DNA of 53,264 nt, from the NCBI GenBank assembly GCA_044892505.1, contig CM097882.1:552306737-552360000 (forward strand). Direction: 5' to 3'. Source of the DNA: Schmidtea nova. Its lineage: Eukaryota. The notes below the pieces were generated by a model. It saw only the letters and a program-made list of their open reading frames with translations. It ran no database searches and had not been told where the DNA came from. A program made the translations under genes and the position numbers. Shown piece after piece: positions 41,756-42,251 of the stretch (position 1 is the first letter of the stretch; the number at the start of each line of letters is the position of its first letter).

Positions 41756-42251
41756 TTATTGAATATATTCATAGTTAATTGAGAATACTATTTAATTAAG
41801 GGAAAATATTAATAGTAAAATATTATAAAAACATTATAAAACATTATAAAACATTATAAAAATTTTAAAATCTTACATTTTGTTCTACTATTCATCACGG
41901 AATTTATCGATGCATTATTTAAAAAATGTCCAGTATTTGAATCCTTATTAAAATTCATCGCGGATACACTTGAATTGTTATTAAAATTAAAATTCGTCGT
42001 GGATTCATTTGGGGCATTAAAAAGTTCTATAAAACATTAAATAAAATAATAAATATACAAATAAAATTTTACCGTTTCTAAAAGAAACATTATTGTTATT
42101 GTTTCCGGATACATTTGTAACATTTCGCATATTAATTCTTGACATTCCTATAATAAATTACGTTTAAAATTAATAAAATAAAAATAAATAAATCCTTACC
42201 ATTCAATCCATTGATATTGGTATTTTTAACATTATTGATATTGTTGTACAT
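41756..42251 (-). CDS. Four-exon Asn-rich protein (about 102 aa), Polinton accessory gene
   Basis: Exons 42251-42200, 42147-42073, 42026-41877 and 41787-41756. GTAA donors and TAG acceptors, three phase-1 introns (52, 46, 89 bp) and one open frame. The last exon is the least certain. Confidence 0.65.

Follow-up and report, generated by a model that had tools for sequence, protein, structure and literature searches.

Asparagine-rich exons upstream of the DNA polymerase in a Schmidtea nova Maverick: a candidate spliced leader in a probably intron-bearing element

The Maverick element and its genes

The window, that is the whole stretch of 53,264 nt of Schmidtea nova DNA analysed here, contains a young Maverick/Polinton of about 15.5 kb (35902-51403), surrounded by AT-rich eukaryotic DNA with what we take to be remnants of retrotransposons and DNA transposons. 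The element is bounded by terminal inverted repeats and by a 6-bp target-site duplication (AGGAGA, at 35896-35901 and 51404-51409), and its inverted arms match each other's complement at 95-99%, in part across N gaps. Tandem 120-nt units and 61-nt-spaced repeats with palindromic CGCG motifs are present in the terminal repeats (36120-36371 and 50945-51228). Pfam matches identify an integrase (rve, E 2e-8, and Chromo, E 2e-5, one per half), an A32/FtsK-type ATPase (Pox_A32, E 1e-6) and an adenoviral-type protease (Peptidase_C5, E 1e-5). An ORF of 406 aa, found at the usual capsid position and having 137 homologs, gives no Pfam match and is presumably the double jelly-roll major capsid protein. 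The related loci cited below by L numbers are 32 JGI metagenome contigs found through this capsid protein (32-67% identity). A 139-aa ORF (42576-42995, minus strand) is conserved after the protease in 11 of them, with 33-50% identity; it has no Pfam match, and its start resembles that of a DEDD-type nuclease. No relative of the 139-aa protein or of the capsid protein was found in IMG/VR, and a tRNA search of the element returned none. A TBP-like ORF (48458-48928, plus strand; Pfam TBP, E 2e-18) also lies inside the Maverick, with counterparts of 49-52% identity in L001, L002 and L022.

The polymerase is present in two parts on the minus strand. Its N-terminal part (41110-39314) holds the remainder of a Cys/His module described below, followed by a linker, Thr/Asn-rich and acidic, in which an 18-nt repeat occurs. 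In the window copy the frame is broken near 39314, despite the nearly identical inverted repeats. The C-terminal catalytic part (38666-37041) is a 541-aa ORF carrying motifs that we assign to family B, which would make it a protein-primed polymerase; it is 55-58% identical to the polymerase frames of relatives, which run to 1,150-1,300 codons. Neither part matches Pfam. The model pfam03175 (Alpha-type adintovirus PolB) matched none of three full relatives and neither window part, and Endonuclease_7 gave a weak match in the polymerases of all three full relatives (E 2.5e-5 to 2.3e-4). In the window, polymerase and capsid module share a strand, but they lie on opposite strands in all six relatives that contain both, which indicates that the region was rearranged in the window's lineage. 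A 45-nt intron-like stretch (36996-37040, minus strand) starts right after the polymerase stop and could be a 3' UTR intron or a chance match.

Short introns appear to interrupt several genes of the element. The protease intron (43408-43370, minus strand, 39 nt) lies five bases after the start and occupies the same position in 15 of the 19 related loci in which a protease was matched (L002, L004-L007, L009-L012, L014, L015, L017, L019, L021 and L022), or in 11 after four near-duplicates are set aside; the protease is unspliced at that site in L008, L027 and L028, and L024 lacks such a pattern. This distribution points to a Maverick core gene with a spliceosomal intron throughout the lineage. 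Because the position is common to elements with 55-60% identical capsid proteins, the intron would have been retained as the elements replicated, consistent with transcription in the nucleus and no RNA intermediate. The integrase intron (46729-46686, minus strand, 44 nt, phase 1) splits the integrase core motif; it is absent from all 11 related loci spanning the site, where the motif is continuous, and is thus a probable recent gain. On the plus strand, a 49-nt phase-1 intron (49055-49103) would place a short ATG exon (starting at 49036) in the frame of a 94-aa ORF. Outside the element, three intron-like stretches of 44-46 nt surround two similar 60-nt exons (11453-11706, plus strand), in the style of the Maverick introns. 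Introns this short, together with the AT-richness, suggest an invertebrate host.

Asn-rich exons in the spacer

The 139-aa ORF and the polymerase, both on the minus strand, are separated by a spacer of 1,465 nt with 14-27% GC and many simple repeats. Rfam families were searched for in 40900-42700 and none was found; the spacer has no blastn match in the 32 related loci or in the rest of the window. A sequence-only reading had proposed that a hidden Asn-rich gene of four exons occupies this spacer, with symmetric phase-1 exons of 75 and 150 bp. Both exons are found, on the minus strand and with GT-AG introns. Exon 1 (E1, 42251-42200, 52 nt) carries the ATG and ends in phase 1. Intron 1 (42199-42148, 52 nt, GTAAGG..TTATAG, 12% GC) is followed by exon 2 (E2, 42147-42073, 75 nt, symmetric phase 1-1, Asn-rich), and intron 2 (42072-42027, 46 nt, GTAAAA..TTATAG, 9% GC) by exon 3 (E3, 42026-41877, 150 nt, symmetric phase 1-1, rich in Asn and Ser), all junctions of E1-E3 being in phase 1. 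These three exons held up under the tests given below; the fourth did not, as its acceptor ranks only sixth, it adds only 10 codons and four other acceptors compete with it.

That E1-E3 are a chance pattern in AT-rich and AAT-rich DNA, neither spliced nor translated, appears very improbable. The low GC and the simple repeats of the spacer would favour such a pattern, as would the 26 AAT triplets among the 31 Asn codons, and shuffles with loosely defined introns reach the length of the proposed model (102 codons) in 18-26 of 1,000 cases. However, E1, E2 and E3 are all open in only 6 of 20,000 dinucleotide shuffles (E3 alone in 324), and the same length is matched by 2 of 1,000 shuffles when introns are strictly defined. 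When introns are limited to 36-100 nt, the longest spliced ORF in the spacer is exactly the 102-codon model. A plain intron filter, applied to both strands of the 15.5-kb element, gave seven matches. Four of them lie singly in the integrase, in the protease, ahead of the 94-aa ORF and behind the polymerase stop; the other three are those proposed here, which are consecutive and all in phase 1. Finally, the exons have 23-28% GC and the introns 9-12% with an excess of T, and the GC steps fall on the splice sites. E1-E3 are consequently very probably genuine exons. Asn accounts for 31 of the 90 non-junction codons (34%, close to the 30% proposed) as against 7 expected from the base composition of the exons, whereas Lys, Ile and Tyr are below expectation; the other two frames contain 2 Asn each and 6 and 16 stops.

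The composition also suggests a possible prion-like or condensate-forming function. Prion-like (Q/N-rich) proteins are commonly defined by at least 30 Gln or Asn in 80 residues; the best 80 residues of the E1-E3 peptide contain 29, a borderline value just under this cut-off. The peptide resembles the Q/N-rich domains of the yeast Sup35/Ure2 type in being about one-third Asn, with Ser, Phe, Met and few acidic residues, but differs from them in having no Gln, little Gly or Tyr, and seven basic residues. A secreted product was considered and rejected, since the seven glycosylation sequons in 92 residues are close to the level given by composition and no signal peptide is seen by eye.

Relatives of the exons were searched for in several collections, E3 being a 49-residue low-complexity query for which a blank carries little weight. 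Against JGI metagenome contigs, where prokaryotic gene callers rarely call such sequences, E3 gave 433 pattern matches and no confirmed one; against longer proteins it gave eight candidates, none with E <= 0.001; and no relative of this short piece was found in the ESM Atlas or Pfam. All six loci with both capsid module and polymerase core lack a gene like E1-E3 at that place.

Sister copies were found in four contig sets of one study that contain the spacer stretch, none of them recorded as RNA and one of which may be the window's own source. One contig covers 41761-42628 with three differences and no gap; others cover 41761-42094 and 42065-42391 with two differences each and no gap. Among the exon differences listed there is only one, Ser-to-Gly at 41889. 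The frames are intact in these contigs, which differ from the window by only 2-3 letters. A variant contig from run X3, with a depth of 128 and no listing in the other three runs, contains 42116-41986 twice together with 17 additional letters, in which an NVSG motif is repeated with two third-position changes. This duplication amounts to 148 nt in the DNA and to 102 nt after removal of intron 2, so the frame is kept only if splicing occurs; the argument comes from one contig and from an event with one chance in three.

The polymerase front and the acceptors behind exon 3

Upstream of the ATG at 41110, the polymerase frame remains open for 18 codons (41166-41111, minus strand), immediately behind a potential acceptor at 41167, and the GC content rises at 41166, directly behind the AG. 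These codons form the first half of a conserved, probably zinc-binding Cys/His motif. Their addition raises the score by 10 bits against a profile of 23 homologs, a gain reached by 1 of 3,000 base shuffles, and by 8 bits (5 of 3,000 shuffles) against three rows found independently through the capsid protein. Since 20 of the 23 homologs came from a query that already held the extension, the 8-bit gain is the fair measure. Among 200,000 shuffles, 40 produce an open C-x-H-x-C pattern. A profile restricted to the first half failed to distinguish the extension from the other six-frame pieces of the window (2,162 in all; 4.5 bits, E 6.5). The homologs have a Cys at the junction column in 15 of 23 cases, and one column further in three more, with four gaps; the window triplet reads Gly when unspliced and Cys when preceded by the terminal T of E3.

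The complete module (41166-40970, minus strand) comprises about 60 residues with two Cys/His clusters, is sometimes repeated, and is found in L007, L008, L017, L022 and L027, at the front of polymerases or in separate ORFs. No Pfam family matches it. The predicted structure of one homolog (P0131) has a pLDDT of 82. In a fold search against solved structures for a match to classical C2H2 zinc fingers, the best rows were Kaiso fingers at E 1.1, none reaching E <= 0.001, and its ESM Atlas matches were all below 0.9.

Splice sites in the spacer were scored with matrices built from 19 control introns of 37-53 nt, of which 12 come from the protease and three from the leader of the L002 polymerase. 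The donor that directly follows E3 (41876) is the best of the 60 GT sites in the spacer, and the phase-1 acceptor at 41167 is the best of its 34 AG sites (score 9.6, against 9.5 at 41728, 7.2 at 41223, 6.9 at 41694 and 6.2 at 41788). The acceptor at 41788, which leads to the fourth exon of the sequence-only reading (41787-41756, minus strand, 10 codons and a stop, behind an 89-nt intron), is the first after E3 and ranks sixth of 34. This exon is a possible end of a short form. The acceptors at 41747, 41728, 41694 and 41167 are also in phase and rival it: the first two give short Asn-rich ends, and 41694 opens a possible further piece of 75 nt in phase 1-1 (41693-41619). Use of 41167 would define a third intron of 710 nt (41876-41167, minus strand, 12.5% GC), of which 471 nt are tandem arrays, leaving about 240 nt without them; likewise, some 45 bases of the 89-nt intron are a 10-nt tandem array. 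No ATG-led piece ending in phase 1 on a T at a donor, and within spliceable distance, is found between 41787 and 41167. An ATG at 41201 was rejected as polymerase start because it is in another frame, inside intron-like DNA of 5% GC.

The front of the polymerase or the Cys/His module can be seen in four related loci (L002, L017, L007 and L022), and this front is hypervariable. In L002 an ATG exon and two symmetric phase-1 exons of 117 and 84 nt enter, again in phase 1, a polymerase frame of 1,148 codons; the introns are of 45, 53 and 49 nt, and the exons have no sequence likeness to those of the window. The module of L017, the closest match to that of the window (42%), lacks the first half and is preceded by a lone ATG exon; only 55 residues match before the contig ends, so that this gene may not be a polymerase. 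The polymerases of L007 and L022 show no splicing; like many homologs, they begin two to three residues ahead of the first Cys.

Interpretation and comparison with known elements

On balance, we favour the interpretation that E1-E3 form an Asn-rich leader, spliced onto the 5' end of the message for the Maverick's protein-primed DNA polymerase. The cell's own spliceosome would remove the two short introns and join E3 to the acceptor at 41167, directly or via one small exon, so that one mRNA would be composed of E1, E2, E3 and the long polymerase exon. The leader would contribute the start codon together with some 92 residues, Asn-rich and probably disordered. The last base of E3 would complete the first Cys of the module, predicted to be the first ligand of the probable zinc site. 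Behind the leader would come the low-complexity linker and then the terminal-protein and polymerase domains, which are known for the protein-primed polymerases of this class (PMC11071308). Since the front of the enzyme is hypervariable among relatives, the Asn-rich part may be merely tolerated; most likely it would be a fast-evolving extension whose main job is to provide a start. The nearer acceptors may yield short Asn-rich by-products and keep the polymerase mRNA rare.

Several observations lead to this assignment. The orphan phase-1 acceptor and the half motif behind it call for an ATG exon further upstream, and in the window copy nothing nearer than E1-E3 fits. The 18 codons upstream of the ATG at 41110 are open and carry the conserved motif, the best donor and the best acceptor of the spacer lie at the two ends of the proposed intron, and the terminal T of E3 restores the junction Cys of the homologs. 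The L002 polymerase likewise has a three-exon phase-1 leader, short introns are normal in the element and its lineage, and the adenovirus pTP also has a distant first exon. Against it, the splice requires an intron of 710 nt (or introns of 183 and 452 nt) where the 19 controls have 37-53 nt, nearly equal acceptors such as 41728 must be skipped, and the matrices lean on the 12 protease introns. In this DNA a terminal T will often occur by chance, and the first-half profile taken alone was not significant in the window. The L017 module shows that the ATG at 41110 could serve as a start, and the starts near the first Cys in L007 and L022 predict a tiny first exon rather than a leader of 92 residues. 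In 41103-41648 the sister contigs depart from the window at 2-5 letters and 3 gap letters, in unlisted places; other copies could therefore have a local first exon, which also counts against the polymerase leader.

It is less probable, though still a serious alternative, that E1-E3 and a near terminal exon constitute a stand-alone accessory gene of about 100-120 residues, the polymerase starting at the ATG at 41110 or from a small first exon that is unrecognisable in this copy. Its product would function in the nucleus as a weakly basic protein of low complexity. The 89-nt intron passes the control-intron filter, its tandem array suggests that it may once have had a normal length, and the four-exon model is the longest spliced frame under short-intron rules; moreover, relatives have variable accessory ORFs, some with introns, and the L017 module does without its first half. 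Yet this arrangement leaves the best acceptor and the conserved C-H-C half motif upstream of 41110 unexplained, its terminal exon adds 10 codons of different composition, and no such gene is seen at that place in the six informative loci or anywhere among the 32. The hidden Asn-rich gene of the sequence-only reading is thus retained as a spliced Asn-rich coding unit in a Maverick, and a self-contained four-exon gene is the weaker of the two readings. Both can hold through alternative splicing. In one such scheme, by analogy with adenovirus E2, alternative 3' splice sites might yield an abundant short Asn-rich protein and a rare polymerase with the same front; the polymerase would be gathered in nuclear replication condensates and the weak long splice would set the ratio. 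We regard this scheme as rather doubtful. The idea that the exons are captured host cargo has gained no support; a host-gene fragment, now neutral or decaying and lying upstream of the polymerase by chance, is improbable. Intron length and signals do match the host-side candidates of 44-46 nt at 11453-11706, the nematode Mavericks bear intron-containing host cargo, at least in the available text (10.1101/2022.07.12.499685), and the inversion of the polymerase relative to the six informative relatives shows that the region was rearranged. But introns of the same kind are normal in the element's own core genes, E3 has neither a homolog in the collections searched nor a match elsewhere in the window, and the frames are intact in the sister contigs, the X3 variant keeping the spliced frame across its 148-nt duplication.

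Mavericks are annotated by their ORFs, and their core genes are described as intronless; for vertebrate elements the source cited is reportedly Kapitonov and Jurka, 2006. Intact vertebrate Mavericks are described as having intronless ORFs (PMC8097293, Barreat and Katzourakis 2021), and nematode Mavericks as having intronless core genes and intron-bearing cargo genes (wasp/krma; 10.1101/2022.07.12.499685), as far as the available parts of these sources go. The window element shares with Mavericks/Polintons (adintoviruses) the terminal inverted repeats, the 6-bp duplication, the integrase, the ATPase, the protease, capsid-sized ORFs and a protein-primed polymerase. It differs from the vertebrate and nematode elements, as these parts describe them, in the short GT-AG introns read from the DNA of its protease and integrase, so that its core genes are not intronless, and in the probable spliced leader of its polymerase. 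Introns inside Maverick-like elements are shared with the nematode cargo genes and with the introner insertions of dinoflagellate polinton-like viruses (PMC11957031); in the accessible text, however, the former are host genes of known folds and the latter mobile introners, whereas the window element has AT-rich host-type introns of 39-52 nt within core genes, and the position of one of them is conserved.

Alpha and Beta adintovirus PolB were defined by Starrett et al. 2021 (PMC8502044), the available text of which does not mention splicing. The Beta-type PolB/pPolB2 is described there and by Jeong et al. 2023 (PMC10748475), in the parts at hand, as a divergent polymerase with an OTU-like domain and, in some cases including pPolB2, an HNH domain. 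OTU domains are otherwise known, together with terminal-protein domains, for protein-primed polymerases of this class, in the excerpt available (PMC11071308). The window's relatives are similar to Beta-type/pPolB2 in lacking pfam03175 and in their weak match to Endonuclease_7 (HNH, endonuclease VII); the window polymerase differs in its N-terminal Cys/His module and probable spliced leader, neither of which is mentioned in the available descriptions. Zinc-finger genes are reported in some adintoviruses, according to the accessible text (10.1101/2024.03.25.586562). In the adenovirus E2B unit, the first exon of pTP is 9 nt long and lies some 3.3 kb upstream (PMC2397415, Table 1, from the available part), and E2B mRNAs are rare (PMC7851563, from the available part). 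As in our reading of the window polymerase, the start of a replication protein lies in an upstream exon, with a long intron in between. The leader contributes three residues in adenovirus and would contribute about 92 low-complexity residues, spread over three exons, in the window; the window element is also integrated and is no adenovirus. We found no paper on spliced Maverick polymerases in a search that left aside most subscription papers, Repbase records and supplements, and the annotated maps accompanying adintovirus papers may show such splices.

The window element is probably an intron-bearing Maverick with an exon-built, low-complexity polymerase leader. If so, the host spliceosome processes the protease, integrase and polymerase transcripts of one lineage of animal Mavericks, and annotation based on ORFs would overlook start codons and N-terminal domains and may count intact copies as defective. 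The polymerase seems to have a front end that is assembled from exons and can be exchanged: it is Asn-rich in the window, charged and Ser-rich in L002. Accessory ORFs also vary among the relatives; by eye we take three of them to encode a ubiquitin-conjugating enzyme (L022, 722-225, minus strand), a RING-finger protein (L001, 1665-2170, plus strand) and an intron-split dual-specificity phosphatase (L019, 663-1260, plus strand). Two penton-like genes stand in tandem in L018, L021, L022, L029 and L032.
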